From positions 1,664,001 through 1,728,000 of the forward strand of contig OX638340.1 in NCBI GenBank assembly GCA_951812955.1: a stretch of 64,000 bases of DNA, given 5' to 3'. The notes under the pieces were generated by a model that saw nothing but the letters and a program-made list of their open reading frames with translations, searched no databases and was not told the DNA's origin. Positions 5,642 through 37,722 of the stretch are shown here, one piece after another. Every line of letters starts with the position of its first letter. Within the stretch, counting starts at the first letter, position 1. This DNA is from an uncultured Gemmatimonadota bacterium (lineage in GTDB: Bacteria > JAAXHH01). Both the position numbers and the translations under genes were made by a program.

Positions 5642-7525
5642 ATGAAACCCATGGCATGCCCCGTCTTCTTCGTAGGCCTGCTGGTCCTCTTCCTTCTCCC
5701 CGGTGTAGTCTCCGGCCAAACCAACGCCGACGCGCGGTACATAGTAGAGAACTATGAGAAGCTGGAGCGCTATGTCCCCATGCGCGACGGTACCAGACTG
5801 TTCACCTCCATCTACGTGCCGAAGGACGATTCGCGGACCTATCCCATCCTGCTGCAACGCACGCCTTACAGCGTGGCGCCCTACGGAGCGGCGTACAAAT
5901 CACGGATCGGTCCGTCCATGCTGTTCGCCCGGGAAGGGTACATCATCGCATACCAGGACGTGCGCGGCCGTATGATGTCGGAAGGCGAATTCGAAGCGGT
6001 GCGACCCCATGACCCTGACAAGGCATCGGACGCCGACATCGACGAAAGCACCGATACCCATGATACGGTGTCCTGGCTGCTGGGAAACGTGCCGGGCCAC
6101 AACGGCCGCGTGGGCGTATGGGGCATATCGGCACCGGGTTTCTACGCCACCCACGCCCTGATCGGCGCCCATCCCGCCGTGAAGATCGTATCGCCCCAGG
6201 CGCCCGTTACCGACTGGTGGATCGGCGACGACCGCCATCACAACGGCGCCTTCCAGCTGCAGGCCACCTTCAGTTTCCTGTCCTTCTACGGCGCCCCGCG
6301 CCCTGAGCCGACGACCCAGCGGGCATCGGGCTTTCGGGACTACGGCACGCCGGACGGCTACCAATGGTACCTCGATCTCGGGCCCCTGTCGAACATCAAC
6401 GAGAAATACCTCCACGGGAAAAACAAGATCTGGAACGACATGATGGAGCATCCCGATTACGACGAATTCTGGCAGGCCCGCACGCCGTTGCCCCACCTTA
6501 GAGACGTCAGGCCGGCTGTGCTCGTGGTCGGCGGTTTCTTCGACGCCCAGGACTTGTACGGTCCGCTGAAAACCTATGCAGCCGTGGAGGACAACAATCC
6601 CGGATCCGTAAATCACCTCGTCATGGGGCCGTGGTGGCACGGCGGGTGGGCGCGGGGAGACGGCCTGCGGTACCAGGACATCTATTTCGACCAGCCCACG
6701 GCGGCGCATTACCGGGAAACCATCGAACTGCCCTTCTTCAATCACTACCTCAAAGACGGTCCCGATCCGGAGCTGCCTGAGGCCAGCATCTTCGTCACGG
6801 GTTCGAACCGGTGGCACGCCTTCGACCACTGGCCGCCCAGGGAGGCGCGCGACGCGTACCTCTACCTTGCACCCGGCGGCGGACTGTCCTTCGACCGGCC
6901 GGCGGGTGTGGACGACTTCGCCGAATACGTCAGCGATCCAGCGAAACCCGTGCCCCACACGTCCCAGATCGTCATCAACCGGGACGACCGCTACCTCATC
7001 CAGGACCAGCGGTTCGCTTCAACCCGTTCGGACGTGCTCGTTTTCGAGTCGGATGTGCTGCAGGAGGACATAACCGTGACGGGAGATCTGTTCGCCAACC
7101 TGTACGTGACCACGACAGGCGAGGACGCGGATTTCATCGTAAAGCTGATCGACGTGTACCCCGATACGGCGAGCTACGTGGGAGAAAACCCCATGAACGT
7201 GAAGATGGGCGGATTCCAGCTCATGGTGCGGGGCGAGGTCATGCGGGCGCGGTACCGGAACAGTTTCACCTACCCAGAGCCCATGAGGCCGGGGGAAGTC
7301 ACGAATATCGAATTCGACATGCAGGACGTGGCCCACACATTCAAGGCGGGACACCGCATGATGGTCCAGGTCCAGAGCACGTGGTTCCCCATGGTGGACC
7401 GCAATCCCCAGACCTGGGTGCAAAGTATCTACGAGGCGAAGGAAGAGGACTACCAGGCGGCTACGCACCGGATCTACTTCTCACGGAACGCGCCTTCCCA
7501 CCTCAGGATGAAGCTGCTGGAATGA
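5642..7525 (+). CDS. CocE/NonD family hydrolase (S15 X-Pro dipeptidyl-peptidase-like), secreted
   Basis: Signal peptide, alpha/beta-hydrolase nucleophile elbow GISAPG, and a C-terminal beta-sandwich characteristic of CocE/NonD. AGGAG ribosome-binding site. Confidence 0.75.
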   Translation: MKPMACPVFFVGLLVLFLLPGVVSGQTNADARYIVENYEKLERYVPMRDGTRLFTSIYVPKDDSRTYPILLQRTPYSVAPYGAAYKSRIGPSMLFAREGYIIAYQDVRGRMMSEGEFEAVRPHDPDKASDADIDESTDTHDTVSWLLGNVPGHNGRVGVWGISAPGFYATHALIGAHPAVKIVSPQAPVTDWWIGDDRHHNGAFQLQATFSFLSFYGAPRPEPTTQRASGFRDYGTPDGYQWYLDLGPLSNINEKYLHGKNKIWNDMMEHPDYDEFWQARTPLPHLRDVRPAVLVVGGFFDAQDLYGPLKTYAAVEDNNPGSVNHLVMGPWWHGGWARGDGLRYQDIYFDQPTAAHYRETIELPFFNHYLKDGPDPELPEASIFVTGSNRWHAFDHWPPREARDAYLYLAPGGGLSFDRPAGVDDFAEYVSDPAKPVPHTSQIVINRDDRYLIQDQRFASTRSDVLVFESDVLQEDITVTGDLFANLYVTTTGEDADFIVKLIDVYPDTASYVGENPMNVKMGGFQLMVRGEVMRARYRNSFTYPEPMRPGEVTNIEFDMQDVAHTFKAGHRMMVQVQSTWFPMVDRNPQTWVQSIYEAKEEDYQAATHRIYFSRNAPSHLRMKLLE

Positions 7526-7614: not shown

Positions 7615-8748
7615 TCAGACGAAATTAAATCCGTACCAGGGCAGTTGGAGGGGAAAGACGCTTTCCAGCGCGGTCCGAAGCGGTCCGGATGCAATCGCCT
7701 TGATCGGATCCTCATCGGGCGGCATCACGCCGAAGACCAGCGTGCCCAGATCGCCCGATGCGATCGTATGTTCCTGGCCACCACATCGAAGAACCACCGA
7801 TCCTTCCGTAACATCCCAGGCCAACGCGCCCGGTCCCAGTACATCGCCGATGTATTCCGCGAACAAGGTCAGCAGCCGCTCAGGCTGCAGGACGAGGACG
7901 GTACCCGTGAATCCCTGGGGTGACGGGGTAATACCACGGGATCGAAGGAGGGAAGCCAGTTCGAGGTCGGCGCCCGTCGTCACGATTTCGAGGGAACCCG
8001 CGCCGTATAGATCGAGGAGGGCAGGAAGCGCGCGGACGAGGGCGGCCCTGGAACCCGCGATCTCCACGATTCTTGCGCGTCCGGCTTCTTCTTCTTCACG
8101 GCCGGCCCTGGGTTTCTGGATGCCGGCATAGGCAACCGCGCGCCCATCCTGGCGGATCACCAAGGTTTCCCCGTCCCGGTCACAGATCCACGCCGCTTCC
8201 ACCACCTTCTTCAGATCGGCAGTAGACCGGACGTACCGGCTGGATTCCTTCGCGTATAGCCGCGTCATGGCGGTCAGATCCGACGGCTTCGCCGGCCTGA
8301 TGTCCGTCCGTGCCGAGGACAGAACGCCCCGTCGTACGGCATACGCGGCATACTGGCCGATCCGCTTCGCACCGAGGCGGGTGTACAGCCCTCGTCCTCC
8401 CGAAATCGGCATGAGCACTGCGTCCTGATCTTTGGCCTTCCGGATCGCCGCCGCCATCAACCGCGTCGCCAGGCCCTGGCCCCGGTGGGACTCGTAGGTC
8501 GCCACCGCGCCGATGCTCATGACGGTCATCCGGCTACCCATCACCGAGATGTCCCGCGTCAACGCGCCCACGTGGGAGACCACCCTGCCTTCGTCGACCA
8601 TGACAAGGAGGTGGTCGAAGTTCTCCGGCGCGAACAGGAGGGGATACTGTTCCTCCATCCGGCCAGCGCCGTCGCCGCGGAAAATGGTGTTGACCAGTTT
8701 GCACAGCGACTCGTACTCGGGCGCTTTCAGCCCACGTGGACCTTCCAT
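7615..8748 (-). CDS. GNAT family N-acetyltransferase (Eis-like, two-domain)
   Basis: Acetyl-CoA binding motif RGQGLATRLMAAAI. The ~377 aa length is typical of Eis-like GNAT proteins. GGAGGAG ribosome-binding site. Confidence 0.65.
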   Translation of the reverse strand: MEGPRGLKAPEYESLCKLVNTIFRGDGAGRMEEQYPLLFAPENFDHLLVMVDEGRVVSHVGALTRDISVMGSRMTVMSIGAVATYESHRGQGLATRLMAAAIRKAKDQDAVLMPISGGRGLYTRLGAKRIGQYAAYAVRRGVLSSARTDIRPAKPSDLTAMTRLYAKESSRYVRSTADLKKVVEAAWICDRDGETLVIRQDGRAVAYAGIQKPRAGREEEEAGRARIVEIAGSRAALVRALPALLDLYGAGSLEIVTTGADLELASLLRSRGITPSPQGFTGTVLVLQPERLLTLFAEYIGDVLGPGALAWDVTEGSVVLRCGGQEHTIASGDLGTLVFGVMPPDEDPIKAIASGPLRTALESVFPLQLPWYGFNFV

Positions 8749-9027
8749 ATAGCCGACTCCTCCAATTTACTTCCGACCTGCGACCCGGGGCGAGTCCCGG
8801 CCCAGCCGCGTCAAGACACACCTCAAAGCAGGACCCTGTCCCTCCGGGTTCTTTGACAAACAGTCCACGCTCTATATATTCCCGTTTGTCAGGGGTGTCA
8901 AGAACGGCGGCGTGTCGCCTTCTCGCGACCGTATGGACCGGTGGCAACCACCTGTCGGCAACCTGTAAAATCCGTGCGCATGTCCATCCAACCGCATCCT
9001 CGCCCAAACCGTGTACAATTCAAGCCC

Positions 9028-11730: not shown

Positions 11731-11789
11731 ATCGGAAACCAGGCAGCTCATGAATCGGAAACCAGGCAGCTCATGAATCGGAAACCAGA
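11721..11789. repeat. 23-bp direct repeat x3 (CAGCTCAT[A/G]AATCGGAAACCAGG) spanning the HAD stop and the kinase start
   Basis: Seen directly. Copy 1 carries the TAA stop of the upstream gene. Copy 2 carries an ATG that is out of frame with the kinase. Copy 3 carries the kinase ATG at 11773. Confidence 0.8.
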
Positions 11790-12831
11790 CAGCCACTCCG
11801 GCAGCGAGCTTGAGGTCATCGAACGTTTCCCGGAACTGCGCGCCCTCGTCGTCGGGGACATCATGCTCGACGTTTACGAGTTCTGCCGAACCGGGGACAG
11901 CAAGCCCATCGATTCGGAGAAGGCGGGAAAGCGGGCCTACAAGGCGCAGGAAACGATCAAGGTGCTCGGCGGCGCGGGCAACGTGGCGGCCAACCTGGCT
12001 TCCCTGGACGTGCAGACCACCCTCGTGGGCGTGACGGGCAACGACGAACATTACTTTAAGATCCGCGATCTCGCGGACGATCTGGAAATACGCCACGGCC
12101 TGATCCGGGACGAGCGCCGCCCCACCACGATCAAGGCCCGCCTGTACCTGGACGACGACTACCTGCTGCGGCGCGATACCGAGTGCGCCGACCGGATCGA
12201 CGGCGGCACCTCGGCCGCGCTGGCGAAGGAAGTCCTTCGCGCACTGCCGGAGACCGACGTCGTGATCCTCAGCGATTATGACAAAGGGGTCTTTACCGCG
12301 GCGAACACCGGTCAGATCATCCGCGAATGCCGCCTCAATGAAATCCCCGTCGTGGTTGATTTCAAGCCGGGCAACCGGGCGTTCTTCGCCGGCGCGGACA
12401 TCATCGCCCCGAACGCCGCCGAGGCCGCCGAGCTTATCGGCGGGTTTTCCATGGACCGGCTGGGTTCCGACTGCCGGCGGCTGCATGCTTCGCTGGGTTG
12501 CCGGAACACAGTCGTCACGCTGGGAGAGCAGGGACTCTGCGGCGTGGGGCCGGACGGCTTCTTCCATGTACGGGGCCATCGCGTCAAACCCGTGGACAAG
12601 GTCGGTTGCGGCGACACCGTGCGGGCGGGGCTGGCCATCGGCGCGGCGCTGGGGCTTCCCCTCGAGGAGTCGGGGGAACTCGCAAACGACGCGGCGACGG
12701 TCATCGTGCAGAAACCGGCTACCTCGGTCCTTTCCCGGGGAGAACTCAGGAATTTCGTATCGGGAAAACAAGAAGTCAGTCCACCACCCGCGGCGGCGCT
12801 GGTCGGACGCGGGGGAGCGTCCGACGGGTAA
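11773..12831 (+). CDS. PfkB/ribokinase-family carbohydrate kinase (heptose-7-phosphate kinase-like)
   Basis: GG motif KVLGGAGNVA and the C-terminal anion-hole motif GCGDTVRAG. Confidence 0.75.
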   Translation: MNRKPDSHSGSELEVIERFPELRALVVGDIMLDVYEFCRTGDSKPIDSEKAGKRAYKAQETIKVLGGAGNVAANLASLDVQTTLVGVTGNDEHYFKIRDLADDLEIRHGLIRDERRPTTIKARLYLDDDYLLRRDTECADRIDGGTSAALAKEVLRALPETDVVILSDYDKGVFTAANTGQIIRECRLNEIPVVVDFKPGNRAFFAGADIIAPNAAEAAELIGGFSMDRLGSDCRRLHASLGCRNTVVTLGEQGLCGVGPDGFFHVRGHRVKPVDKVGCGDTVRAGLAIGAALGLPLEESGELANDAATVIVQKPATSVLSRGELRNFVSGKQEVSPPPAAALVGRGGASDG

Positions 12832-12914
12832 GGACGGACGGCCTGGCTCGGGAACTACCCGCAGCCTGGGACGTAAAATCGTGTACATTCACCGCAAAAC
12901 GAGTTAGTATCGAC

Positions 12915-13802
12915 ATGAAAGTCAAAGCATACGAGAGGATATCCGGCAGGGGAGGGGTTGTGGTCCGTCTCATATTGTTTTTTGCAAGCTTCGCACTGGT
13001 ATCGACGGCCTGCGAATCCGGTCCCACCGTGGACGGGACGGACGCCGAAACCTTCGACGCATCCATCGCCGCGATCAAGGCGGCGCTTCCCGAGGAAGAC
13101 CAGGAGAAAATCGACGAAGTGATAGAGGCGTTCGAGTACCTCTATAGCGACAACGTGATCAGTTCGCTGAACGCTTCCGAGGCCATCCGGAACCGGATTC
13201 AGAGCCGTCTGGACGGCATGGACGTGGGGGAAATCTTCGCGGAGTGGACCGACCGGGTGGACAAGGCGATCGAATCCCTCGAGGCGAAGAAGCAAAATAC
13301 GGACTCCGCCATGGAGAACCTGAAGGACGTACGGGTCAGAGGACCCGAATACTACGTGCAGCGCGGGCAGTCCGTCGTGAAAATCAACATCCACAACCGG
13401 ACGGATCACACCATCTCCAGGGTGTATTTCCGCGGCACCCTATGGCAACAGCAGCCGAGAAAGTGGCTTCTTGAGGACGATTTCAACTACAATATCCGGC
13501 GTACGGAGGGCAAGAACCTGGGACCTGGCGATCGGGCCGAATGGAACTTCGCCCTGCTTTCACCCGTCTGGAAGCGAGCCCCGGAGGACGTGGACAACCT
13601 CTCCCTGAGCGTGATCGTGACACGGATCGACGGGGGGCAGGAACAACCCATCTTTGACGCGTTTACGGACCGTTTCACGACCAAGGACTCGCGCAGGCTC
13701 AGGAGGCTGGTCTCTCTCAAGGAATCTATCGGGACGCTTGAGCCGGAACCCGATCCCGAGGAGACATCCCAATCGCTCGGCTGGACCTCCAACATGAATT
13801 GA
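12915..13802 (+). CDS. hypothetical lipoprotein
   Basis: Signal peptide plus lipobox LVSTAC. No known catalytic motifs. The listed ORF 12498..13802 is an out-of-frame upstream extension overlapping the kinase. Confidence 0.5.
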   Translation: MKVKAYERISGRGGVVVRLILFFASFALVSTACESGPTVDGTDAETFDASIAAIKAALPEEDQEKIDEVIEAFEYLYSDNVISSLNASEAIRNRIQSRLDGMDVGEIFAEWTDRVDKAIESLEAKKQNTDSAMENLKDVRVRGPEYYVQRGQSVVKINIHNRTDHTISRVYFRGTLWQQQPRKWLLEDDFNYNIRRTEGKNLGPGDRAEWNFALLSPVWKRAPEDVDNLSLSVIVTRIDGGQEQPIFDAFTDRFTTKDSRRLRRLVSLKESIGTLEPEPDPEETSQSLGWTSNMN

Positions 13803-13878: not shown

Positions 13879-14747
13879 TTATCCCCTGTCGTCACCTTCC
13901 CTGGCTGATACAATATACCTGTCCACCGTATCGGCGAAGATCAGGAACTGCGGGTTGTTTCGGTGGGTTGCCCTCAGGGCCAGTACCGTAACGCCTTCCG
14001 ATCCCTCTGTATGTACGCCCCGGCAGTACGCCTCCATTAACGCGGGTTCAAGTGGTTCTCTCGAGTCGTGGAAGCTATCCGCGAAAAAGCCGAAAATCAT
14101 GCCCACGATACCGATGCCCACCATCATCATCAACACGCTGGCCCCCTGTCCCAGGGGGGTGACCGGGTACTTGTCGCCGTATCCCACGGTCGTGGAGGTC
14201 ACCACGGCCCACCAGATGCTGTCGCCGTATACACTGAAGACCTCAGGCTGGGCGCGGCGTTCCACCTCGTAGATCACGGTCGAGCTGATCATCAGGTACA
14301 TGATGGTGATAAGGAAAATCGGTATGATCCGTATCCGACTGTGGTACATGGACCGGGCGAACTCCGCCAGTTTTGGGCTGTATCGGAACATCTTGAGCAG
14401 CCGTAGTGTCCGGGCGCCCCGGACCAGTCCAAGCTGCTCCTGGGTCAGACCGGGGTAGAATCCGATCCAGAAGGGCAGGATGCTGATCAGGTCGATCACC
14501 CCCAGAGAACTGACCAGGTACCTGCCCTTGCGCGGCGACAGCCTGATGCGCAGCAGATATTCCAGGGTGAAGAACCCCGCGATGACCCGCTCGATCCAGA
14601 TAAACCCCGCCCAGGCGCCGGCGTCCAGACTGCTGCGCGTCTGGGTGTACTGGAGCTCGATGAAGTAGAGTATCATGTTGACGGCCAGTACGTAGGGTCC
14701 GAAACGGTGTACGGCCGCAAGCACGGAGGACAGGAATCCCGGCATGG
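13879..14747 (-). CDS. voltage-gated potassium channel (ion-transport family)
   Basis: K+ selectivity filter TTVGYGD. S4-like segment with a regular Arg repeat (LVRGARTLRLLKMFRY). Start at ATG 14747, with an AGGAGG ribosome-binding site 5 nt upstream. Confidence 0.8.
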
Positions 14748-14912: not shown

Positions 14913-15683
14913 TCAGGACTTTTTCGATCGAAGGGCCGCCAGCCGGTCCCGCGTCGAGGAATCGGCCAGCGCGGGTTTCTCGGCCGCTTCTAGGGCCGCG
15001 GCAATGTTGGGATCGTCGGAGATCTCGGTCTTGCCGAAAGCGCCGATTTTGAGTTCCGCCGCACGGGACGTCGTTTCAGCCTTCTCCGTCTCCTTGTCCA
15101 TGGCGTTCAGGGCCGTGTCCAGTCCGCCCAGGGAGCTGCTCAGCCCCGCGGCCTGCCGCACGCCTTCGGCGCGTTCGACGGCCCGCTCCTTCTTCATCCT
15201 TGCCTGCTCCATGCGCCGCTGGGCCTGCTTGAGTTGGGTCTGCGCCTGCTTCAGTTTTTCCGCGGCCACGTCGTAAGCCTGGCGAAGCTCCGTCGCGAAA
15301 GCCTCCGCTTCCTGGTCCTCCTGGCGCTCCCGTTCGATCTCCGGGTTCAGACGCTCCAGTTCAGAGACCAGCTTGTCCAGGCTCTCCTCCAGCTTGGCGC
15401 GCTGCCCCTCTTCCGCCCCTTCGAGCTGGCCTTCGAGCCGTTCGGCAGCGGCCAGGTACCTGTCGTACTGCGTCAACAGCGCCTGCGTCTCTTCGTGGTC
15501 CTTCTTCACGTCCATCTCGGCCTTGCCGACCCGTTTCCCGAGCTTGTCGAGTTCCTCTTCCATGAGAGAAATCTGTGCCTCGGACGCGGTTTCCGGATCG
15601 AAGGCCACCACTGCCTGGGTAAAAGACTCCAGGGCGTTGCCGGCCTGTTTCTTGCCGACGCGGGAAAGAAATTTCCAGATCAT
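14913..15683 (-). CDS. PspA/IM30 (phage-shock protein A / Vipp1) family protein
   Basis: All-alpha coiled-coil of ~250 aa with a PspA-like N-terminus. It is the last gene of a three-gene minus-strand operon. Confidence 0.75.
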   Translation of the reverse strand: MIWKFLSRVGKKQAGNALESFTQAVVAFDPETASEAQISLMEEELDKLGKRVGKAEMDVKKDHEETQALLTQYDRYLAAAERLEGQLEGAEEGQRAKLEESLDKLVSELERLNPEIERERQEDQEAEAFATELRQAYDVAAEKLKQAQTQLKQAQRRMEQARMKKERAVERAEGVRQAAGLSSSLGGLDTALNAMDKETEKAETTSRAAELKIGAFGKTEISDDPNIAAALEAAEKPALADSSTRDRLAALRSKKS

Positions 15684-15699
15684 GTCCTATCCTTTCTCT

Positions 15700-16401
15700 T
15701 TAAATAACCTTTACTTCCTCAAGCATCAGTTCCACGCCCAGGTACAGTTCTATAACTCCGTCGCCCGCGCTGATCAACAGGAATTCGTCCACGCGCTCGG
15801 GATCCTCCGGGTTGTAGGGGTCCCCACTCGCCACGCGGAAATAGGACATGGCCTGCTGGGTTTCCTCGTAGACCTGCTCTCCGTACGAATCCCGGATGAT
15901 CCGCTCGCTGACCTGCACCGGCACGGTCTGCCCGTCGCCATCCATCCATTCGCGGAGGTAGGACTGCTCCTCGCCGTCGCCATGGAGTACTTCCGGAGAT
16001 CCAATGATACCATCCTCATCGTTCAACCAGGTTGCCCAGATCTCCTCCGAATGGGGATACAGGTCCCGATCGAGCACGTACAGGCGGCATTCCACGGGTT
16101 CCCCGTGCTCCGCGACCACCTGGAGGAAGGCCGAGGTGCCCTGAAGGTAGCAGCGATAGGCCATGGCGCCTTCGCCCAGGTCGATCTTGCCGATGGCTTC
16201 GACGGCCAGGGGGAAGGATGGGAAGTTGAACTGGACGAGGCCGATGAAGGTGGACAGTCCGGCGCCGTCGATGTCGACCAACCGGTCGATGGCGACACCG
16301 AGGGGAAGATCCTGGTCAACCCGTGTGGGTTTCTTCCGAAAAAAACCAGCCGCCTCTTTCGCCTGTTTCTTCGCTACGGAACGAATAATGTGGAAGCTCA
16401 T
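15700..16401 (-). CDS. hypothetical protein, possibly a DUF2491/YjfK-like partner of PspA
   Basis: Acidic soluble protein. The call rests on adjacency to a PspA-family gene, as in the E. coli yjfJ-yjfK pair, and is inference only. Start set at MSFHIIR (ATG 16401). Confidence 0.4.
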   Translation of the reverse strand: MSFHIIRSVAKKQAKEAAGFFRKKPTRVDQDLPLGVAIDRLVDIDGAGLSTFIGLVQFNFPSFPLAVEAIGKIDLGEGAMAYRCYLQGTSAFLQVVAEHGEPVECRLYVLDRDLYPHSEEIWATWLNDEDGIIGSPEVLHGDGEEQSYLREWMDGDGQTVPVQVSERIIRDSYGEQVYEETQQAMSYFRVASGDPYNPEDPERVDEFLLISAGDGVIELYLGVELMLEEVKVI

Positions 16402-16412
16402 CGGGTCCTGCG

Positions 16413-18233
16413 CTACTCCTCGCCCACGATGGGCTTGATGTCGTCGATGGACCGCCAGAGGGCGTCTTCGAAGAGCGTCATGGGCTTGCTGCCATAGGTA
16501 TCCACCCATTGCTTCGACAGGATCAGGATGGCGTCCACCGTCAACGTCTCCACGCTGCTGTCGAGATAGCCGAAGAGCCAGCCCTCCTGAAGTTCCGGGT
16601 AGGTCTCGTGGGGGATCGACGCCACCTCGTAGATCGTGTTGCCGAACTGATCCACGGCCGTGCTGAAATAGTGCTCGTCCACGGCGACCATGCTCAGCTG
16701 TCCACCGTATTGCCGGTCCGCATCCTTCAGCAGTTCGGAGTTTAACCCGGCGACGAACAACATGACCGAGTTGGGATCCCCGGCCACCTGGCTCAGGGCC
16801 TCATCGTAGCTGGCGAACCGCGTGTTGAACTCCCCGTACCTGGGATCCTGGAGGACGAATCCTTCCCAGGCCCTGTGGGTACCAGAACCGCGGGGACCGA
16901 CGTACACGATATGGGTGTTCGGCTGGAGGTCCGAGACGCTTGCGATGCCCCCGCCCTCATTGACGATCAACTGCACGTACTCGGTGTACAGGGTGGACTG
17001 CAGCCCGACCAGTTGTTCCGCCGAAGCCGGGTTCTTCCTCAGGTAGGAGTTCAGAATGTCGCTTTGCACGAGCACCGCGTCGGCCTGGTTCTGGACCAGG
17101 TTGTTCAGGTTTTCTTCCGAACCGGCCGTCGTCTGGAGCATCACGTCGAAATCAGGCAGGTGAGACTGCAGGATCTGGCCGAATCGATGGTAGTTGCCGT
17201 TCTCCACCCCGGTGTTCACCGTGATGCGCGGCTGGTTCGGATCGGCGGTGGCCACGACTTCGGCGGCCAGGGCGATCGCCGGGGTCACCCCTGGCGGCAG
17301 GTATTCGGGATCTCTGGGCGTGCCTTCCAGCGTGGCGACCTGCTTGTCCAGTTCATCCAGCTTCGCGCGCAGTTCCGCGTTGTCCTCGGCCAGGCGTTCG
17401 GCCTCGCCGCGCCACTCCTTGTAACCCGGATCATTGGCGTGATGGTGGGCCATGGCGTAGTGACGGCGGCTGCTCATCATGTCCAGCATAGACCACATGA
17501 ACAGGGCGTCCCACATCCCAAAGCTGGGATAGGACATGAAGGCGTATCCCGGCGTGCGCCAGCCCATGCCCCCGTAGTAGCTGTCCCGGCCGGCATAGTA
17601 ATTGTCGTAGGAGGTGCGGTTCTGCGAGCCCCGTTGGTATATCCCGTTGTCCCGGTACGTGCTCGTGTTTGCGGCCGAGTTGGACGACCGGGCGAATCCG
17701 GACTGTCGCGACTGGTGGGTGTTCAGCGACCTGCGGGCCGTCTCGCTCTGTACCCGCCTGCCCATGACCGATGACCGGGCCGTGGCCCGTCCGGTCGAAG
17801 CGCCCGAGACCGCACCGCCGGCCCGGGTGGACCTGGCCGCGGTGGCCGTGGACCGCTGGGCGGACGTGCTTCGTGCCGGCGTGGCGGACTGGCCCGTTGT
17901 GCGGGCGGGTGTCTGCCGCGTGGCGGTGGTTGTACTTTTCCGTGAGAAAATGCTGCGGCGGCCGAATGAACTGCGGCGGTTCCAAAGCGACCGCGAACTG
18001 CGGAATCCACCGAAACCGCGGCGTGCGTAGGCTTCTTCAGGGCTGAACAGTCCGGTGATCTGCCGTATCGTTCGGTCCGCGTTATCCGCGCTTTCCACGG
18101 GTGGCACGGCATCGTCGATCGACCGCACACGGTCCGTCAATCCGGGACTGTTGCCACCCGGACTGATCTGCAGAAACCCGCCTGTCAGCACGAGCAAGCC
18201 GGCAATCATAAGCAGTTTTAATTTTCGAGACAT
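16413..18233 (-). CDS. secreted protein with an Arg/Ser/Thr-rich disordered linker and a C-terminal TAXI-like (TRAP-type) periplasmic binding domain
   Basis: Signal peptide. About 150 aa of low-complexity R/S/T-rich sequence. The C-terminal ~300 aa resembles TAXI-family solute-binding proteins. A coiled-coil segment (AERLAEDNAELRAKLDELDKQVATLEG) lies in between. Confidence 0.5.
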   Translation of the reverse strand: MSRKLKLLMIAGLLVLTGGFLQISPGGNSPGLTDRVRSIDDAVPPVESADNADRTIRQITGLFSPEEAYARRGFGGFRSSRSLWNRRSSFGRRSIFSRKSTTTATRQTPARTTGQSATPARSTSAQRSTATAARSTRAGGAVSGASTGRATARSSVMGRRVQSETARRSLNTHQSRQSGFARSSNSAANTSTYRDNGIYQRGSQNRTSYDNYYAGRDSYYGGMGWRTPGYAFMSYPSFGMWDALFMWSMLDMMSSRRHYAMAHHHANDPGYKEWRGEAERLAEDNAELRAKLDELDKQVATLEGTPRDPEYLPPGVTPAIALAAEVVATADPNQPRITVNTGVENGNYHRFGQILQSHLPDFDVMLQTTAGSEENLNNLVQNQADAVLVQSDILNSYLRKNPASAEQLVGLQSTLYTEYVQLIVNEGGGIASVSDLQPNTHIVYVGPRGSGTHRAWEGFVLQDPRYGEFNTRFASYDEALSQVAGDPNSVMLFVAGLNSELLKDADRQYGGQLSMVAVDEHYFSTAVDQFGNTIYEVASIPHETYPELQEGWLFGYLDSSVETLTVDAILILSKQWVDTYGSKPMTLFEDALWRSIDDIKPIVGEE

Positions 18234-18544
18234 GAGGTACTTCCCCTTTGTAGTCGATAGGATGGTTCGGATTCTGGCTTCCTAAAGATAAGGACTTCGC
18301 ATCCTGCAGGCAAGTTGCAAACCTTTATGGAACCGGTGATCCGGTCGAATGTGTAGCCGTTTTGCCAGTCTGCGGTCCGCCGCGTACGATTTTCGGCGTG
18401 GCTCGGGCATGAAGATACCGAAGATACCATTGACCGGGTAGTCCGCCGGCCATACCATATCGGATCGCGTTTCAGACCAAGGCTAAATACCAAAGACGCC
18501 ACATAGCAGACCGGTTCACCGATCCTGTAAAGGAAAGAACACGC

Positions 18545-19747
18545 ATGCCCATCACGGAGGTCCGCGTTCGGCAGGTTGCCGTCCCGAGGATCTATGACAC
18601 TTATTGCGCGGACCCCAAGCACTTGAAGGCTACCATCGACCACGGCCGGTCTACCTACCAGATCATCGAACTGAAGACCCATGATGGCCTGACCGGAATC
18701 GGCGAGGTCTCCGATATCGCGCCGCGGATGGACGCGCCTTCACCCGGATCATTGCAGGACATAGTGTCCAGCGTGCTGGAAGGCGGTGACCCTGCCGCGT
18801 GGCGCAACCTGCATGACCGGGCCGGGGAAGCGCTTCCCGGAGACCTGTACCCGGAACTCAGGCAGTTGATTCTCTTCGGTTTGGAAAGTTCATTGCTCGA
18901 CCTGGTCGGCAAGGCGTACGGCATTCCTCTTTACGAGCTCCTGGGCGGACGATGCCGGCACGCCGCCGCTGTCTCGTGGGTAGCCTACCTGCGCGGCGAC
19001 GCCGCCCTCGAAGATGAGCTGCAGGCGCTCGAGCTGGAGATGGCAGACCAGGTGGGATCGGGCATGAAGGCCTTCAAGCTCAAGGTGGGCGAGGACCACG
19101 AACGCGACCTGGAGAGGGTCCGGCTGGCACGGAGGATCGCGGGAGCCGGAGCGTACATCAAGGTGGATGCCAGCGGTTTCTGGGAAGAAGACGAGGCCCT
19201 GTCCAGGCTGCACGACATGGCGGAGGCCGGCGCCGACGCGTGCGAGACGCCGATTCGCGCGCTCTCGAGACCCATGTCGCGGGAGGATCCCGCCCGAATC
19301 GAATCAGAAGCGGACGGGATTGCCGAAGCGCTGGCAGGTGTCCGCGGCAGTTCCCCCATACCGATCATCGAGCATGTCGCCGATCTCGGAGATGTATTCC
19401 TGACGGCCCTGATCCGGCGTCGCGCCGTGGACATCGTCAACGTCGTTCCCTGCCAGGCCGGCGGGCTGCGCCGCGCCAAGCGACTGCTCCACGCCGCAGA
19501 GACCGCGGGCATGCCCGCATTGCTGGGCAGCACGATCGAATTGGGACCCGGAACGGCGGCGGCGGTACATCTCGCCGTTTCGTCGGCAAGCGTCAACGTG
19601 CCCTCGGACCTGGTGGGTCCCGGACTGCTCCAGGACGACGTGTGCACCACCCCATTCACCCTCGAAGGAGGTGAGCTTTCGCCTTTCAAGGGGCCGGGAC
19701 TCGGCATCGAGCTGGATGAAGAGAAACTGGCGCGGTGGACGGGTTAA
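18545..19747 (+). CDS. enolase-superfamily enzyme (mandelate racemase/muconate lactonizing family)
   Basis: Capping domain plus barrel motifs KLKVG and KVDASG. Confidence 0.8.
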   Translation: MPITEVRVRQVAVPRIYDTYCADPKHLKATIDHGRSTYQIIELKTHDGLTGIGEVSDIAPRMDAPSPGSLQDIVSSVLEGGDPAAWRNLHDRAGEALPGDLYPELRQLILFGLESSLLDLVGKAYGIPLYELLGGRCRHAAAVSWVAYLRGDAALEDELQALELEMADQVGSGMKAFKLKVGEDHERDLERVRLARRIAGAGAYIKVDASGFWEEDEALSRLHDMAEAGADACETPIRALSRPMSREDPARIESEADGIAEALAGVRGSSPIPIIEHVADLGDVFLTALIRRRAVDIVNVVPCQAGGLRRAKRLLHAAETAGMPALLGSTIELGPGTAAAVHLAVSSASVNVPSDLVGPGLLQDDVCTTPFTLEGGELSPFKGPGLGIELDEEKLARWTG

Positions 19748-19829: not shown

Positions 19830-20276
19830 TCACCGCCTGAATCTGCCAGAACCGCCTCGCCCCATTTGCGATGCTTCCTCCACCAGTTTATCGAACGTCT
19901 TCATCGCGTCCGGCGAAAGCACACCCTTCAGGTTCGTCTTGAACTGCTTTTCGTTTTCCTCCAGTTGTTCACGCAGCCATTTCCAGTCTTCGGTCTTCCT
20001 GGCCTGTTCCAGCAGCGCGTCCTTCTGCGTTGATGCTTCCTTGACCATGGCGCGCAGTTGCAGCACCTGATCGTCGGTCGTATCCATGCGTATACTAAGC
20101 ACGTGCCAGATCTGATCGACACGGAAGGTGTTCATCGCTTGCATTTGTTCCAACATGGCACTGTTCTGTCCCCGGCCGCCCATTCGGCCGAATCCGCCTC
20201 GCTGCGCGGCCGCGTCGTTGGCGATATAGGCAATCATCATCAGGCCGATTACGGCAAGGTGAAGACGGTATTTCAT
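19830..20276 (-). CDS. Spy/CpxP-family periplasmic protein (LTXXQ motifs)
   Basis: Signal peptide MKYRLHLAVIGLMMIAYIA. Helical protein with LTXXQ-like motifs. Start is ATG 20276. Confidence 0.6.
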   Translation of the reverse strand: MKYRLHLAVIGLMMIAYIANDAAAQRGGFGRMGGRGQNSAMLEQMQAMNTFRVDQIWHVLSIRMDTTDDQVLQLRAMVKEASTQKDALLEQARKTEDWKWLREQLEENEKQFKTNLKGVLSPDAMKTFDKLVEEASQMGRGGSGRFRR

Positions 20277-20369
20277 GCTATGACTCCCTTCAATTAGATG
20301 CCGCGGTCGGACTGGGGATCCTTCCGCGGCGGGTTCTCGCTCCAATAACCAGCGGTCAGCTAACAATTG

Positions 20370-20424
20370 AACGGTGAACTTTCATTCTAACGGTGGACTT
20401 TCATTCTAACGGTGGACTTCACTT
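20370..20424. repeat. 19-bp tandem repeat x3 (AACGGTGGACTTTCATTCT) between two Spy/CpxP-like genes
   Basis: Seen directly at 20370-20388, 20389-20407 and 20408-20424 (last copy degenerate). Confidence 0.75.
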
Positions 20425-21088
20425 AACGCCGGTCGCGGAATGATTCACGGCCTCCCCGGCGTCCGCGCATCCCGGAATCCCGGCGTCCGTCGCGCCGGTC
20501 GCGGAATGATTCGCGCAGCTCTTCCTGCTGTTCCGGTGTCAGCACGTTCTTGACCTCGGCGCGGAAGACGGCGCCTCGCTCGAACACGCTGCCCTGCGCC
20601 CTGGACACGGCCGCGGCCAGCTCTTTCACTTTTTCCAGGTCCGGGCTGGTCTCGCCCATCAACTCGTTCAGATCAATCCGTGCGAGCCTCGAATCGGCGC
20701 GAAGCTGGACCATGTCCCGTGCATACGCTGAACGCAGCGTGCTGATCTGTTCCTGTTGCTCGTCTGTGAGTTCGATATTGTTCAATGCCCTGCGGGACAG
20801 GTCGTTCCCGCGCGACCGGTCGTTCCCGCGGGACCTGCCGGTACGTGCTGCGTCGTTATCGGCAAGATTGTGGTCCAGGGCGTCGGCGAACTCTCCCGCT
20901 GATCCTGATTCCGCGAACTCGGCAATTAGCTCGAATTCGGATTCTGCCTCGTGCTCCGCGCCCGCCGTGGCGGCTTCGTGATGGCCGCCGCCCTCATTAT
21001 GACTGATCTTTCCCGCAGCATCGAAAGCCCAGGCCAGAACGGCCACGGACAGCGTGCCTGCGAAGATTCCTGTAATCATCTTTTTCAT
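20423..21088 (-). CDS. Spy/CpxP-family periplasmic protein
   Basis: Signal peptide MKKMITGIFAGTLSVAVLAWA. Two clear LTXXQ motifs (LTDEQQEQI, LTPEQQEEL). AGGAG ribosome-binding site. Arg/Asp-rich repetitive tail. Confidence 0.7.
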   Translation of the reverse strand: MKKMITGIFAGTLSVAVLAWAFDAAGKISHNEGGGHHEAATAGAEHEAESEFELIAEFAESGSAGEFADALDHNLADNDAARTGRSRGNDRSRGNDLSRRALNNIELTDEQQEQISTLRSAYARDMVQLRADSRLARIDLNELMGETSPDLEKVKELAAAVSRAQGSVFERGAVFRAEVKNVLTPEQQEELRESFRDRRDGRRDSGMRGRRGGRESFRDRR

Positions 21089-21163
21089 GCTGTAGCTCCT
21101 TTCGAAATACACCCTGACTGAAATGGTCGCGATCTCCGGAGACCGTTTTCGTGCTTCTCTACA

Positions 21164-21195
21164 TGATTAGACTGGAATCGACGGAGTTTTATTCC
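21164..21195 (-). promoter_or_regulatory. putative ECF-sigma-type promoter (GGAATAAAA-N15-TCTAATCA) about 75 nt upstream of the Spy/CpxP-like gene at 20423-21088
   Basis: A minus-strand motif identical to the one upstream of the ECF sigma gene (22851-22882). The -35-like GGAAT and -10-like TCTAA elements are at ECF-typical spacing. Confidence 0.5.
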
Positions 21196-21286
21196 CTTTT
21201 TCTTTCGATTGCCTTTTCTTCTCATCTCCTATACCGGGCCCGGCATCCACAGCCGATCCCCAAGCCCGTTCCGGCGGCTCGAAGTT

Positions 21287-21766
21287 TTAATCGCCGTTGT
21301 TTCTCCGGTGCTCATCCGTCCGATCGTTCTCGTGGCTGCCGGATCCGTTACGTCCACCCGGCCTGTTGCGCTCCCGGCGCAAGTCGGGACCACCTTCCCG
21401 GCGGAACTCACGGGCGCGTTCGCGGCGCTGGCGGATACTCTTTATCCGCTCCAGCTGCCTTTCGGTGAGGATGGGTTCCAGGTCCCGATGCAACGAATCG
21501 ACCAGGGTCTGCATCTCGCGCCGGTGACGCATGTAATTCTCCCGGAATCCCGGTTCGTGTTCACCCACCACTTCCCTGATCCTTCGTATCTGCTCCTGGT
21601 CCGGACGCACCATTCTGACCCAGCGATCCACGAAGCGTTCCCGGGTCATCTGGGGCGGCGGCTGCAGGCGGTCCCGGGCGAAGGCGCCCAGGATCAACGC
21701 ACCGCATACCATGCCGATGATCAGCGTGGCCAGCAGAATGGCCGCGGTCTTCAAGTGGATGTTCAT
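21287..21766 (-). CDS. membrane-anchored periplasmic LTXXQ-motif protein (CpxP/Spy/ZraP-like)
   Basis: N-terminal TM anchor. LTERQLERI and PDQEQIRRI motifs. Its start overlaps the anti-sigma stop by 4 nt, so it sits in an operon with sigma and anti-sigma. Confidence 0.6.
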   Translation of the reverse strand: MNIHLKTAAILLATLIIGMVCGALILGAFARDRLQPPPQMTRERFVDRWVRMVRPDQEQIRRIREVVGEHEPGFRENYMRHRREMQTLVDSLHRDLEPILTERQLERIKSIRQRRERAREFRREGGPDLRRERNRPGGRNGSGSHENDRTDEHRRNNGD

Positions 21767-22227
21767 AATGCGCCCTCCGTTTCCAGTGCGATCCGCGCGT
21801 CATAGAGGTCTTCAGGGTACAGTTCCTCGGTCAGGCCGAAGGAAGCCGTGAAGGAGACGTTTCCGGTCGTGGCCAGGTTGTAGGTCAACAGCAGCATAGC
21901 GGCGATGGACGCGGCCACCGCCATTCTACGGAACATGAGGGACAACGCAGTCTGGAAATCATGCGTTGCTTCGGCGGTGGAATTCGACACCGGACCGGCC
22001 GCGGACTCCGTCGCCAGACGCTCCATGACCCGGTCGGTGAAGCCCGCCTGGAACGCCGGCGACTCCTGGCCTTCGACGAGACCGCGCAGGTGCATCAATC
22101 GTTCGTATTCTTCCCGAAGGCCCTGGTCGCGCAGGAGCGCCGCGTCCAGGCGGCTTCGTTCACCGGGCGTCAGGGACGTATCGAGCGACCGGTACAGCAG
22201 GTCCAGCTCAGACCGTTTCATGGACAA
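21763..22227 (-). CDS. putative anti-sigma factor (single-pass membrane protein)
   Basis: Sits immediately downstream of the ECF sigma gene and overlaps it. About 150 aa with one predicted TM (MAVAASIAAMLLL). Confidence 0.5.
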   Translation of the reverse strand: MSMKRSELDLLYRSLDTSLTPGERSRLDAALLRDQGLREEYERLMHLRGLVEGQESPAFQAGFTDRVMERLATESAAGPVSNSTAEATHDFQTALSLMFRRMAVAASIAAMLLLTYNLATTGNVSFTASFGLTEELYPEDLYDARIALETEGAL

Positions 22228-22798
22228 GCTCCCTGTTGGAGTACAGAAGTAATCGTTTCAGCTTCTCCTGGGACCGCCTCAGACGGGAAAGGACCGTCCC
22301 GACGGGAATCCCCAGGATCTCGGCGGTTTCTTTCGTGGAATAGCCTTCCATCAGCCGGAGTACGATAACGGAACGGAATTCCGGTTTCAGTTCCTGCAGC
22401 GCCTGTTGAATCCGGTCGGCCGTGTCGTCGTATTCGGCGCTGGCCCGGGGGTCCGCATAATCCGCCTCCGGTTCGTTGCGGTCCCTGCCTGGCACGGCGA
22501 GGGGTACAATGATCGATCGGCGGCGACGTTTTCTGAGTTCGGAAATCGCCAGGTTGACGGCGATGCGAGTCAGGTAGGTGCCGACCGACGCCTGACCGCG
22601 GAACCCCCGGAGGCCGCGGTAAAAACGGATGAAGGTCTCCTGCCCCACGTCCTCCGCATCGGCGGTGTTCCCGAGCATGCGGATGACGACGGACGCCACG
22701 CGGTCCTTGTGACGTTCCACCAGTTCCCGGAAGGCATCTTCGCTTCCGTCGCGGGCGGCGTCGACCAATGCGGCGTCTTTCAAGGCGTCTTCCCTCAT
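22208..22798 (-). CDS. RNA polymerase ECF (sigma-70 family) sigma factor
   Basis: Sigma-70 region 2 (ETFIRFYRGLRGF) and region 4 (SVIVLRLMEGYSTKETAEILGIPVGTVLSRLRR). Start set at ATG 22798 (GAGGGAG ribosome-binding site), downstream of the promoter motif. Confidence 0.85.
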   Translation of the reverse strand: MREDALKDAALVDAARDGSEDAFRELVERHKDRVASVVIRMLGNTADAEDVGQETFIRFYRGLRGFRGQASVGTYLTRIAVNLAISELRKRRRRSIIVPLAVPGRDRNEPEADYADPRASAEYDDTADRIQQALQELKPEFRSVIVLRLMEGYSTKETAEILGIPVGTVLSRLRRSQEKLKRLLLYSNRELVHETV

Positions 22799-22850
22799 CC
22801 CGTCTCCCTCGAATAACCGTTTTCCGGTCAAGTCCGATTCCGCTGCCTAC

Positions 22851-24149: not shown

Positions 24150-24195
24150 AACGCAACTGCTACTGTTCCGCCGACCCGTTTAATCCGGAGCGTTC

Positions 24196-25839
24196 ATGCA
24201 ATACGGTTTCATCATCGACAACAGGAAATGTATCGGGTGCCACGCCTGCACCGTCGCGTGCAAGGCCGAGCACGAGGTGCCCCTCGGCGTCAACCGGACC
24301 TGGGTGAAATACATCGAGAAGGGGACCTATCCGAACACGACCAGGCATTTCTCGGTCATGCGGTGCAATCACTGCGAGGACGCCCCCTGCGTGGAGATCT
24401 GCCCGGTGACGGCGCTGTATACGCGGAAAGACGGCATCGTGGATTTCGATCCACGCAGATGCATCGGATGCAAGGGCTGCATGCAGGCCTGCCCGTACGA
24501 CGCGCTCTACATCGACCCGGACACCCATACGGCGGCAAAGTGCAACTACTGCGCCCATCGGGTGGATATCGGCCTCGAACCCGCCTGCGTGAACGTCTGC
24601 CCTGAACACGCCATCATATCCGGCGACATGGACGATGATTCCACGGAGATCGCCCAGTTGCTCGCGAAGGAACAGGTGACGGTCCGCAAGGTGGAAAAGG
24701 ACACGAAACCCCGCCTGTACTATATCGACGGCGACGAAGCCTCGTTGACGCCCGGGGAAACCGCGACGTCCGACAATTACATGTGGAGCTCACAATCGGA
24801 CGGCGTGGGCCACTTCGCAAGATACATCGAGGAAAGGACCGCCCGCGCGAATCCGGAGGACATGGTCAGACAGCTTGGTGGGGAGAACCAGGGCGGACAG
24901 GTTGGCGGCGGGCAAGATGGCGCCGGCGTACGCGGCGAACAAGATAGCGACAAAGATGAGAGATCCGGCAAAGGCGCCGCGGCGCGCAGGGTCTACGACG
25001 CGCCGGACAAGGGCGTGCTGTGGGGAAACGACGTAGCCGCATACGTTTGGACCAAGGCCATCTCGGCGGGTGCTTTCCTCCTTCCCTTCGCGGCCTCGGT
25101 CCTGGGCATGACGATAGATCCTTTTCTTTCCTGGTTCGGAAGTACCATCGCCCTGACCTTTCTCCTGGCCACGACGATCCTCCTGGTGAGCGATCTGACC
25201 CAGCCCAGACGATTTCTCTATGTACTGCTCCGTCCTCAGTGGAAATCCTGGCTCGTGCTCGGAGGCTACGCGTTGACCCTCTACGGGCTGGCGCTCACGC
25301 TGTGGGCCGTGGCAATGTGGACCGGCCGAACCGGGGCTGCCGAAATCATCGGCTGGATCGCGGCCGTACTGGCGGTCCTTACGGCTGTATATACGGCCTT
25401 TCTATTCGCCCAGGCCAAAGGACGGGATTTCTGGCAAAGCCCCACGCTCGTCCTGCACATGCTGCTCCACGCGGTGCTCGCCGGCGCGGGGGTTTTCGCT
25501 ATCGCGCTTCTGTTCAGTGCGTCGGGCGAAGCGTGGACCGCCTTCGTCCGGAATACGCTGATCGTCGCCATCATCCTGAACCTGCTCGTAATCGCATCTG
25601 AAATGCTGACCCCCCATCCGACCGCCGACGCGCGGAAAGCCGTGCAGGCCATCGTCCGCGGCCGGTACCGGGGGTATTTCTGGATCCTGGGCATCGCCCT
25701 GGGCAACATAGCGCCCGTCGTACTGGCCTGGGCCGGTGGCGAAACGATGCTCGCCGCGGCCGGCGTGGGCGTGCTGATCGGCCTGTACGCGACCGAGTAC
25801 GTCTGGGTCAGGGCGCCGCAGGACATACCGCTGAGTTGA
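24196..25839 (+). CDS. fusion protein: 4Fe-4S dicluster ferredoxin domain (DmsB/PsrB-like) plus NrfD/PsrC-like 8-TM membrane anchor
   Basis: N-terminal domain has four Cys clusters (CIGCHACTVAC, CNHCEDAPCVEICP, CIGCKGCMQACP, CNYCAHRVDIGLEPACVNVCP). Gly-rich linker. Eight predicted TM helices in the C-terminal ~280 aa. Confidence 0.75.
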   Translation: MQYGFIIDNRKCIGCHACTVACKAEHEVPLGVNRTWVKYIEKGTYPNTTRHFSVMRCNHCEDAPCVEICPVTALYTRKDGIVDFDPRRCIGCKGCMQACPYDALYIDPDTHTAAKCNYCAHRVDIGLEPACVNVCPEHAIISGDMDDDSTEIAQLLAKEQVTVRKVEKDTKPRLYYIDGDEASLTPGETATSDNYMWSSQSDGVGHFARYIEERTARANPEDMVRQLGGENQGGQVGGGQDGAGVRGEQDSDKDERSGKGAAARRVYDAPDKGVLWGNDVAAYVWTKAISAGAFLLPFAASVLGMTIDPFLSWFGSTIALTFLLATTILLVSDLTQPRRFLYVLLRPQWKSWLVLGGYALTLYGLALTLWAVAMWTGRTGAAEIIGWIAAVLAVLTAVYTAFLFAQAKGRDFWQSPTLVLHMLLHAVLAGAGVFAIALLFSASGEAWTAFVRNTLIVAIILNLLVIASEMLTPHPTADARKAVQAIVRGRYRGYFWILGIALGNIAPVVLAWAGGETMLAAAGVGVLIGLYATEYVWVRAPQDIPLS

Positions 25840-37610: not shown

Positions 37611-37722
37611 AGGAGAGAACGGGAACTGCCTGAAGGAGAAAACGGGAACTGCCGTTGACGGGGAGAAAGTGATTGGACCGGTGACGGGCGCCGCCTGAGA
37701 GAGGTACGGGTACCAAATTCAT

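Follow-up and report, generated by a model that had tools for sequence, protein, structure and literature searches.

A conserved gene trio of an uncultured Gemmatimonadota bacterium probably forms a cell-envelope module around a divergent YjfJ-type PspA-like protein and a DUF2491 partner

Three adjacent genes of an uncultured Gemmatimonadota bacterium (assembly GCA_951812955.1, contig OX638340.1) probably encode a conserved cell-envelope module, centered on g3, a very divergent YjfJ-type PspA/ESCRT-III protein, and on g2, the DUF2491 protein paired with it. The genes lie in a 64,000-nucleotide (nt) stretch of the contig, positions 1,664,001 to 1,728,000, which we call the window and whose own numbering is used throughout. 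The third member, g1, is a predicted exported protein in which a basic disordered region is followed by a helical module that we term CORE and by a TAXI-fold domain; a K+ channel gene, g4, lies downstream of the trio. Taken together, the trio looks like an undescribed variant of the yjfJ-yjfK membrane-stress module of Escherichia coli. The pairing of PspA with DUF2491 is already known from the yjfIJKLMC operon; what appears to be new is the g3 family, the CORE module, its fusion to DUF2491, and the recruitment of an orphan TAXI domain.

In the list of open reading frames (ORFs), g1, g2, and g3 are co-directional on the minus strand, separated by 11 nt (g1-g2, 16402-16412) and 16 nt (g2-g3, 15684-15699), and a Shine-Dalgarno-like purine run precedes the start of each; the one ahead of the g1 ATG is AAGGGGAAG. 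The start of g2 is an ATG located 36 codons inside the listed 269-amino-acid ORF, and the same start is kept in relatives. Upstream of g1 lie 311 nt of noncoding DNA and then a divergent enolase-superfamily gene (18545-19747), which argues that g1 is the first gene of the unit.

The g3 family consists of proteins of about 255-270 amino acids that escape standard domain models. No match of g3 to PF04012, the Pfam PspA model, was obtained at E<0.1, precomputed Pfam domains were absent from all 120 listed relatives, and PDB searches with the single sequence or a profile returned nothing meaningful. A remote relationship was indicated by comparing profiles with hhalign. We aligned a g3 profile of 109 sequences with a YjfJ profile of ten proteins, drawn from E. 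coli, other enterobacteria, and plasmids of Pseudomonas, Vibrio, Photobacterium, Rhizobium, and Halomonas, and obtained a score of 29.3 (P 0.0019) over 219 columns running end to end (1-255 against 2-230). This alignment pairs the N-terminal amphipathic helices of the two families as well as their C-terminal DRLAALR/DVLARLQ helices. A reversed template scored 15.3 and 30 column-shuffled templates scored 10.4-18.5, while YjfJ against E. coli PspA, used for calibration, scored 40.6. The ten-member YjfJ alignment was required, as the g3 family against a single YjfJ sequence gave nothing by hhalign.

Structural comparison points in the same direction. The AlphaFold2 model of g3 is all-helical (helices 3-27, 35-88, 92-179, 189-211, 225-233, and 244-255), with a predicted local distance difference test score (pLDDT) of about 85-93 for the hairpin formed by 35-88 and 92-179, and as modeled it follows the PspA helix plan of an N-terminal amphipathic helix, a long hairpin, and shorter C-terminal helices. 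When this model was searched against the PDB with Foldseek, the top 13 matches were Vipp1 or PspA, over 219-256 alignment columns. An invariant D29-P30 aligns with the E-D-P turn that follows the first helix of PspA, and the N-terminal helix (residues 2-19) has a hydrophobic moment of 0.47, compared with 0.42 in PspA and 0.45 in YjfJ. We conclude that g3 likely belongs to the PspA superfamily as a remote member, with YjfJ as its closest relative.

The assignment of g2 is more direct. Judged by its sequence, g2 is a true DUF2491 member: it scores 60.3 bits against PF10679 (cutoff 25) over residues 24-191, shares 21% identity with E. coli YjfK (E 6e-7), and is matched at E 5e-21 by a YjfK profile built from five operons. 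The protein is acidic, with an isoelectric point of 4.37. Among DUF2491 sequences, R83, E166, and Y187 are invariant, and W122, R150, W152, and E206 are kept in 90% or more. No hydrophobic or transmembrane (TM) segment was found in g2, its homologs, or E. coli YjfK, and PDB searches for DUF2491, with single sequence and profile, gave nothing meaningful. The N-terminus of g2 is amphipathic, and its first ~20 residues are like those of g3, including a KKQA core (SFHIIRSVAKKQAKEA in g2 and IWKFLSRVGKKQAGNA in g3). Over 21 columns, hhalign aligned these termini with P 0.036, and their hydrophobic moments are 0.34 (g2) and 0.47 (g3). A helix that binds the membrane or a partner may be common to both proteins.

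We next consider how the trio is distributed. Our census comprises 81 loci with a g3 relative, 80 of them from a g3-profile scan of one genome per species and the last a metagenome contig encoding a 42%-identical g1 relative; domains were called with profiles built in this analysis. The arrangement seen in the window, a CORE-TAXI protein followed by DUF2491 and g3, occurs at 44 loci in metagenome-assembled genomes (MAGs) of Gemmatimonadota/Latescibacterota-labeled bacteria, Desulfomonilaceae, and Verrucomicrobiota (g1 is cut by a contig end in two and g3 is duplicated in one). At about 24 alphaproteobacterial loci, g3 is preceded by a single CORE-TM-DUF2491 protein without TAXI; a few of these are split over two adjacent ORFs, and one, L081, has no detectable CORE. 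A single locus, L035, has a CORE-TAXI gene followed by g3 without DUF2491. Overall, a DUF2491 gene adjoins the g3 relative at 69 of the 81 loci, and the order g1-g2-g3 is kept in at least three distant lineages whose neighboring genes are otherwise different. About one locus in three lacks TAXI, and there CORE is either fused to DUF2491 or anchored by a TM helix. The TAXI-bearing form was seen in MAGs only; the fusion form is found in the cultured species Craurococcus roseus, Paeniroseomonas aquatica, and Lacibacterium aquatile.

Individual loci show further variations. A Desulfomonilales MAG (L048) has tandem g3 copies (6382-7173 and 7995-8786) after its DUF2491 gene. The g3 homologs of Pelagibius-type and related Alphaproteobacteria (L025-L032; for example, L027 7917-8801), which are about 45% identical to g3, stand alone beside a divergent LysR-type regulator gene, with neither CORE nor DUF2491 in their flanks; one of the Pelagibius-type loci was examined directly. 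Verrucomicrobial g1 homologs (for example, L041 598-2385) have an extra C-terminal TM helix after TAXI.

The alphaproteobacterial fusion suggests a topology. It starts with a signal peptide that has an A-x-A-type site, continues with a Ser/Arg/Gly/Pro-rich region and then CORE, here with up to 53% identity to g1 residues 228-321, and ends with one strong TM helix, Arg residues after it, and DUF2491. Because of the signal peptide, the positive residues after the TM helix, and the lack of an export signal in YjfK and g2, CORE should lie outside the inner membrane and DUF2491 inside. By extension of this topology, g1 of the window would be periplasmic beyond its N-terminal segment, and g2 and g3 would be cytoplasmic. 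Since CORE and DUF2491 form one polypeptide here, the periplasmic and cytoplasmic halves are expected to act at the same membrane site. In the fused proteins a TM helix takes the place of the amphipathic helix of DUF2491, which fits a role of that helix in membrane attachment.

CORE itself is a helical module of ~100-130 amino acids that is conserved in alignments of the Gemmatimonadota-type, Desulfomonilaceae, Verrucomicrobiota, and Alphaproteobacteria proteins. It consists of a Tyr/Arg-rich lead-in, a hydrophobic helix (FGMWDALFxWxxLD), the segment NDPGYxEWRxEAxxLAxDNAELxAKLDxLD, whose DNAEL-x-AKLD-x-LD portion is leucine-zipper-like, and a final PRDPxYLPPGV. Its pLDDT in the g1 model is about 80-95, and searches of Pfam and the PDB returned leucine-zipper and coiled-coil noise only. 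An exhaustive profile search found CORE in 587 cluster representatives at E<=0.001. Among the best 150 of these 587, 70 combine CORE with TAXI, 14 are CORE-TM-DUF2491 proteins, about 49 have CORE followed by a TM helix only, and 17, probably fragments, have no clear C-terminal helix or partner. The separate CORE-TM protein can also precede DUF2491 and g3, as at locus L091, which represents a third form of the trio. At another locus (L093, 237-2293), a CORE-bearing protein is encoded after a CsbD general-stress gene, in a neighborhood that lacks both DUF2491 and g3. On the census and architecture counts, the constant elements are CORE and DUF2491, usually with g3, and TAXI and the K+ channel are lineage-specific additions.

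These results can be set against an earlier reading made from the DNA letters and their ORFs alone (the sequence-only reading). It had proposed three tightly spaced co-directional genes and an acidic DUF2491-like middle protein, and both proposals hold. Conservation of the three-gene neighborhood in relatives, which it had named as a check, is seen at 44 of 81 loci in several phyla. Its description of g3 as a PspA/IM30 protein survives as a remote relationship to the YjfJ branch, not as membership of PF04012. The arrangement is, as it stated, different from the classical pspABC, but PspA beside DUF2491 was already known as yjfJ-yjfK.

The same reading had described g1 as a secreted protein with an Arg/Ser/Thr-rich low-complexity linker, and this description is upheld. 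A Kyte-Doolittle plot of g1 peaks at a single hydrophobic segment, residues 5-23, and the AlphaFold2 model has a helix at residues 2-17. Alphaproteobacterial homologs have clear A-x-A-type sites immediately ahead of their Ser/Arg-rich region. Residues 19-161 are modeled with pLDDT <50, and residues 71-225 contain 28 Arg/Lys against 4 Asp/Glu, together with 47 Ser/Thr. Homologs of g1 are 29-98% identical to it, nearly all with PF16868. Although the disordered region varies in sequence among them, its positive charge is kept: it is net positive in 64 of 64 homologs (median +15, minimum +6), with about 36% Ser, Thr, and Gly. The model is confident over residues 190-606, where short helices bundle together (197-300) ahead of a two-lobed alpha/beta domain (336-603). 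The coiled coil of the sequence-only reading corresponds to helices 269-282 and 286-300; these are present, and they turn out to belong to the conserved CORE, a module absent from Pfam.

At the start of the basic region, g1 residues 73-84 (window 17982-18017) form the motif GFGGFRSSRSLW, which resembles the C-terminal SRGG(F/Y)G...AR..WGG motif of DUF1190/YjfM, a periplasmic lipoprotein of yjf operons. The match spans 12 columns and is not significant by hhalign (P 0.039); it may reflect a short linear motif common to both proteins, or composition alone. We rejected DUF1190/YjfM as a relative of CORE or of the low-complexity region: BLASTP found nothing, CORE gave P 0.6 with hhalign, and an alignment of signal peptide, low-complexity region, and CORE recovered the 12-column low-complexity motif alone.

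The C-terminal domain of g1 is TAXI-like, as had been proposed. It scores 41.5 bits against Pfam NMT1_3 (cutoff 27) and 64.6 bits against NCBIfam TIGR02122, below the cutoff of 84.35. In the Foldseek search, TAXI binding proteins take the first seven places (E 6e-13 to 6e-11; next match E 9e-8), and the g1 family profile matches the Thermus TAXI protein 1US4 at E 2e-18. Guided by the published glutamate-contacting residues of Vibrio cholerae VcGluP and their roles (PMC11574862), we mapped these positions onto 43 g1 family members. Y348, Q390, D392, E418, G451, and G496 are invariant in all 43 and S372 is kept in 34; they align with VcGluP Y45, Q93, D95, E125, G156, G203, and S75, respectively. 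Because the positions that contact the ligand's amino and carboxyl groups (Y348, Q390, E418, and G451) are among the invariant ones, the predicted pocket looks functional. The residues that read the glutamate side chain in VcGluP (S40, Y46, H123, and Y200) are replaced by V/Q, H/D/N, Y, and F, and the specificity of the g1 domain is probably different from glutamate.

In its fold (Foldseek E 6e-13, TM-score about 0.68 on the target) and its conserved ligand-backbone-binding residues, g1 resembles the TAXI binding proteins of TRAP transporters (Thermus thermophilus 1US4/8U79; VcGluP 8S4J/9IBO). It differs from them in its side-chain-reading residues, in the ~320-residue N-terminal extension (disordered region and CORE) behind which the domain sits, in sharing an operon with a DUF2491 gene and a PspA-like gene, and in having no TRAP membrane component nearby. 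No TRAP permease is encoded in the 64-kb window, where the polytopic proteins are of NrfD, MATE, and NhaA type alone, or at the Pfam-annotated relative locus L002. Judging by gene context, the g1 TAXI domain does not belong to a TRAP transporter. The polytopic ORFs in question encode a fused 4Fe-4S/NrfD-type membrane protein (24184-25839), a MATE efflux protein (35115-36503), and an NhaA Na+/H+ antiporter (37699-38949). The sequence-only reading had coupled a solute-binding-like periplasmic sensor to PspA. The TAXI fold, conserved pocket, and lack of a nearby TRAP permease agree with it, and g1 may indeed act as a sensor; the constant partner, however, is CORE and not TAXI.

Downstream of the trio, g4 scores 101.3 bits against Ion_trans and 55 bits against Ion_trans_2, and its translation contains a TVGYGD filter and an S4-like helix with Arg at every third residue, RGARTLRLLKMFR. 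By these features, g4 is a predicted voltage-sensor-type K+ channel. It begins 167 nt downstream of g3, with an ATG at 14745 preceded by AAGGAGG, and no terminator-like site was found between the two genes. A channel of this type follows g3 at 22 of the 22 loci in the Gemmatimonadota/Latescibacterota-labeled clade to which the window belongs, all of them MAGs, and adjoins g3 at none of the remaining census loci. These 22 loci make up half of the 44 CORE-TAXI trios, and the clade occurs in sponge and marine metagenome samples.

The known system nearest to the trio is yjfIJKLMC, which encodes YjfI (DUF2170), YjfJ (PspA family), YjfK (DUF2491), YjfL (DUF350), YjfM (DUF1190), and the peptide-spermidine ligase YjfC (PMC11237479). 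That study describes the PspA-DUF2491 pairing, in its CesT/Tir-PspA and polyamine group, and reports yjf-type operons with an ion channel; its survey makes no mention of TAXI, NMT1, or TRAP, and our full-text literature search for DUF2491 found no other paper. In E. coli and plasmid loci yjfJ adjoins yjfK, just as g2 and g3 are neighbors here. Further shared features are the combination of cytoplasmic and periplasmic components, an ion channel in some versions, and YjfJ as the best profile match of g3. In contrast to yjfIJKLMC, the DUF2491 gene here precedes the PspA-like gene, CORE, alone or joined to TAXI, takes the place of DUF1190 as periplasmic partner, and g3 lies outside PF04012. The channels also differ, that of the window being a six-helix voltage-sensor type and that of yjf operons a ligand-sensing two-helix type; the channel in a yjf-type operon on a Rhizobium plasmid resembles g4 in the pore region alone (E 3.5e-5). 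Profiles from five operons for YjfI, YjfL (DUF350), YjfM (DUF1190), and YjfC (ATP-grasp ligase) matched none of the window ORFs of at least 50 amino acids at E<=10. With the classical pspF-pspABCDE and LiaIH systems, the trio shares a PspA-superfamily protein, an N-terminal amphipathic helix, and presumed recruitment by a partner encoded next door. None of its three genes is of the PspB, PspC, PspF, LiaI, or LiaF type, and the presumed recruiter is DUF2491, which in some lineages is membrane-anchored and fused to CORE.

We propose the following model of the trio. DUF2491 (g2) and the PspA-like protein (g3), which have no TM segments and similar amphipathic N-terminal helices, would be located at the inner membrane, on its cytoplasmic side. 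The exported g1 would display its basic tail, CORE, and, in this lineage, TAXI in the periplasm, and report on conditions there. TAXI would detect a small amine or carboxylate ligand; CORE and the basic tail, the latter perhaps in contact with anionic envelope components, would monitor the state of the envelope. DUF2491 would serve as the membrane-proximal partner of the PspA-like protein, and the pair would respond at the inner face by binding the membrane and stabilizing or remodeling it, in the manner of PspA-family proteins. For the clade of the window, this response may be coupled to K+ flux through the voltage-sensor-type channel. The domain identities, the linkage of the genes, the fusion, and the conserved pocket are what the data show directly; from them we infer the topology, the interactions, the class of ligand, and the membrane-protective output in this model. 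A more ambitious version, which we offer as a speculation with the odds against it, is a trans-envelope, ligand-controlled ESCRT-III-like system, in which a TAXI ligand, or damage sensed by CORE and the basic tail, is relayed to a DUF2491 adaptor that nucleates or releases g3 polymers, with K+ channel gating as part of the output here.

Several observations weigh against a PspA-based envelope module. g3 scores below the PF04012 gathering threshold, and a weak match to this model was seen in only 2 of 26 relatives (best E 0.005). The HH-suite probability of the match to YjfJ is 14%, the g3 family is not significantly similar to E. coli PspA alone, and the Foldseek E-values are weak (3.5e-3 to 0.2) with low TM-scores. 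At 12 census loci g3 is found alone (eight are Pelagibius-type and the rest are short or cut contigs), and locus L095 (398-2925) keeps a CORE-TM protein with a very long Pro/Ala-rich region ahead of DUF2491 without g3. DUF2491 has been predicted to be an enzyme (PMC11237479). The g1 variant of the window has no TM helix after CORE and hence no spanning link to g2; it may remain tethered by an N-terminal anchor that is not cleaved off, or its effect may pass through the membrane or g4. Finally, linkage to the K+ channel is confined to one clade of close relatives, whose g3 proteins are 73-99% identical.

Some of these points would suit a different interpretation, in which g3 is a generic coiled-coil scaffold in a DUF2491-centered system, for example one with the enzyme predicted for the yjf-type polyamine operons, with no membrane remodeling. 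The missing Pfam PspA match, the HH-suite value, the predicted enzymatic activity of DUF2491, and locus L095 all speak for it, as does the JGI label "chromosome segregation ATPase" on g3 relatives, which is typical coiled-coil noise. We nevertheless consider a generic scaffold unlikely, given that the YjfJ profile match is collinear from end to end and far above the reversed and shuffled controls, the 13 best Foldseek matches are all Vipp1/PspA, the amphipathic helix and D-P turn are correctly placed, and a DUF2491 partner is common to g3 and to YjfJ, a bona fide PspA-family protein. A second possibility is that the module serves mainly ion or membrane-potential homeostasis, the K+ channel being an effector that g1-g3 tune in response to a periplasmic ligand, like the K+ channel of yjf-type polyamine operons. 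The unbroken association of g4 with g3 within its clade, with no terminator-like site between them, favors this idea, and PspA systems are known to respond to loss of proton-motive force. Ion channels also recur in yjf-type operons, both in the published survey (PMC11237479) and on the Rhizobium plasmid. We find it decidedly improbable, however, as the Desulfomonilaceae, Verrucomicrobiota, and alphaproteobacterial versions lack the channel, the 167-nt gap ahead of g4 could hold a promoter of its own, and the Rhizobium channel is of a different type. Least of all do we expect g1 to be an ordinary TAXI binding protein for a transporter encoded elsewhere, in a neighborhood without functional meaning. 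Its fold and conserved pocket would allow this, and TAXI proteins with non-TRAP membrane partners, as well as TAXI proteins with non-uptake roles, are described in two reports (PMC12344293, PMC12718363). Set against it are the gene order retained in distant lineages, the constant presence of CORE in g1 and its fusion or adjacency to DUF2491 elsewhere without TAXI, the lack of a TRAP permease in the window, and the TIGR02122 score below cutoff. The module built around g3 and DUF2491 remains the reading that we favor.

Table 1. Features of the trio and its surroundings (window coordinates)
Feature	Position	Strand	Description
g1	16413..18233	-	606 amino acids; first gene of the operon; predicted exported protein: signal peptide/anchor, basic disordered region, CORE, TAXI
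g1 residues 1-25	18159..18233	-	predicted signal peptide or signal anchor: MSRKLK followed by 15-19 hydrophobic residues
g1 residues 26-189	17667..18158	-	disordered basic Ser/Thr/Gly-rich low-complexity region
g1 residues 190-325 (CORE)	17259..17666	-	conserved helical module absent from Pfam
g1 residues 326-606	16416..17258	-	TAXI-fold ligand-binding domain; conserved pocket
g2	15700..16401	-	233 amino acids; acidic DUF2491 (YjfK-family) protein
g3	14913..15683	-	256 amino acids; all-helical; likely distantly related to the YjfJ branch of PspA/IM30
g4	13879..14745	-	288 amino acids; predicted six-helix K+ channel, Arg-rich S4-type helix, TVGYGD filter
Intergenic, between g1 and the divergent enolase-superfamily gene	18234..18544	.	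presumed operon promoter region; no gene on either strand

No sigma-70-like site was found on the minus strand of the presumed promoter region. Prompted by a neighboring extracytoplasmic function (ECF) sigma factor gene, we also considered an ECF-type promoter, and found no support for it: the window contains 19 copies of the pattern GAAC-N15-18-CGTC where 15.6 would be expected, which is no enrichment, and one of them lies in the presumed promoter region. A role in anti-phage defense was likewise rejected, PADLOC giving coiled-coil noise alone for g3 and nothing for g1, g2, or g4.

The sigma factor gene (22208-22831) belongs to a minus-strand cluster of envelope-stress appearance (19830-22831) that lies 1.6 kb upstream of g1 and is separated from the operon by the enolase-superfamily gene. 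The cluster also includes an overlapping, likely anti-sigma gene without a Pfam match (21763-22227), a Spy/CpxP-like LTXXQ/Metal_resist protein (20423-21112), and small ORFs without a meaningful Pfam match (21287-21766 and 19830-20366). On the other side of the operon are a PfkB-family sugar kinase (11773-12831) and an ORF at 12498-13802 with a weak DUF6694 match (23.2 bits, just below the cutoff of 24.3), whose true start is probably well inside the listed ORF.

PspA, Vipp1, and ESCRT-III proteins are ancient machines of membrane repair and remodeling. The locus described here shows a PspA-like family that standard models miss and that is stably paired with DUF2491 across several phyla. That DUF2491 can be membrane-anchored together with a conserved periplasmic module argues for its acting at the membrane, either as an adaptor or as a receiver of signals. 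In many cases this periplasmic module also carries a TAXI domain without a transporter partner, which offers a lead on how orphan TAXI domains are used. Because the fusion form occurs in cultured species, the link between CORE, DUF2491, and g3 is open to genetic and biochemical tests. If the trans-envelope ESCRT-III-like version of the model were true, g3 would represent a previously unrecognized PspA-like family, a periplasmic input domain would be added to the known controls of PspA-type proteins, and DUF2491/YjfK, and by extension the YjfJ-YjfK pair of E. coli, would gain a first concrete role.

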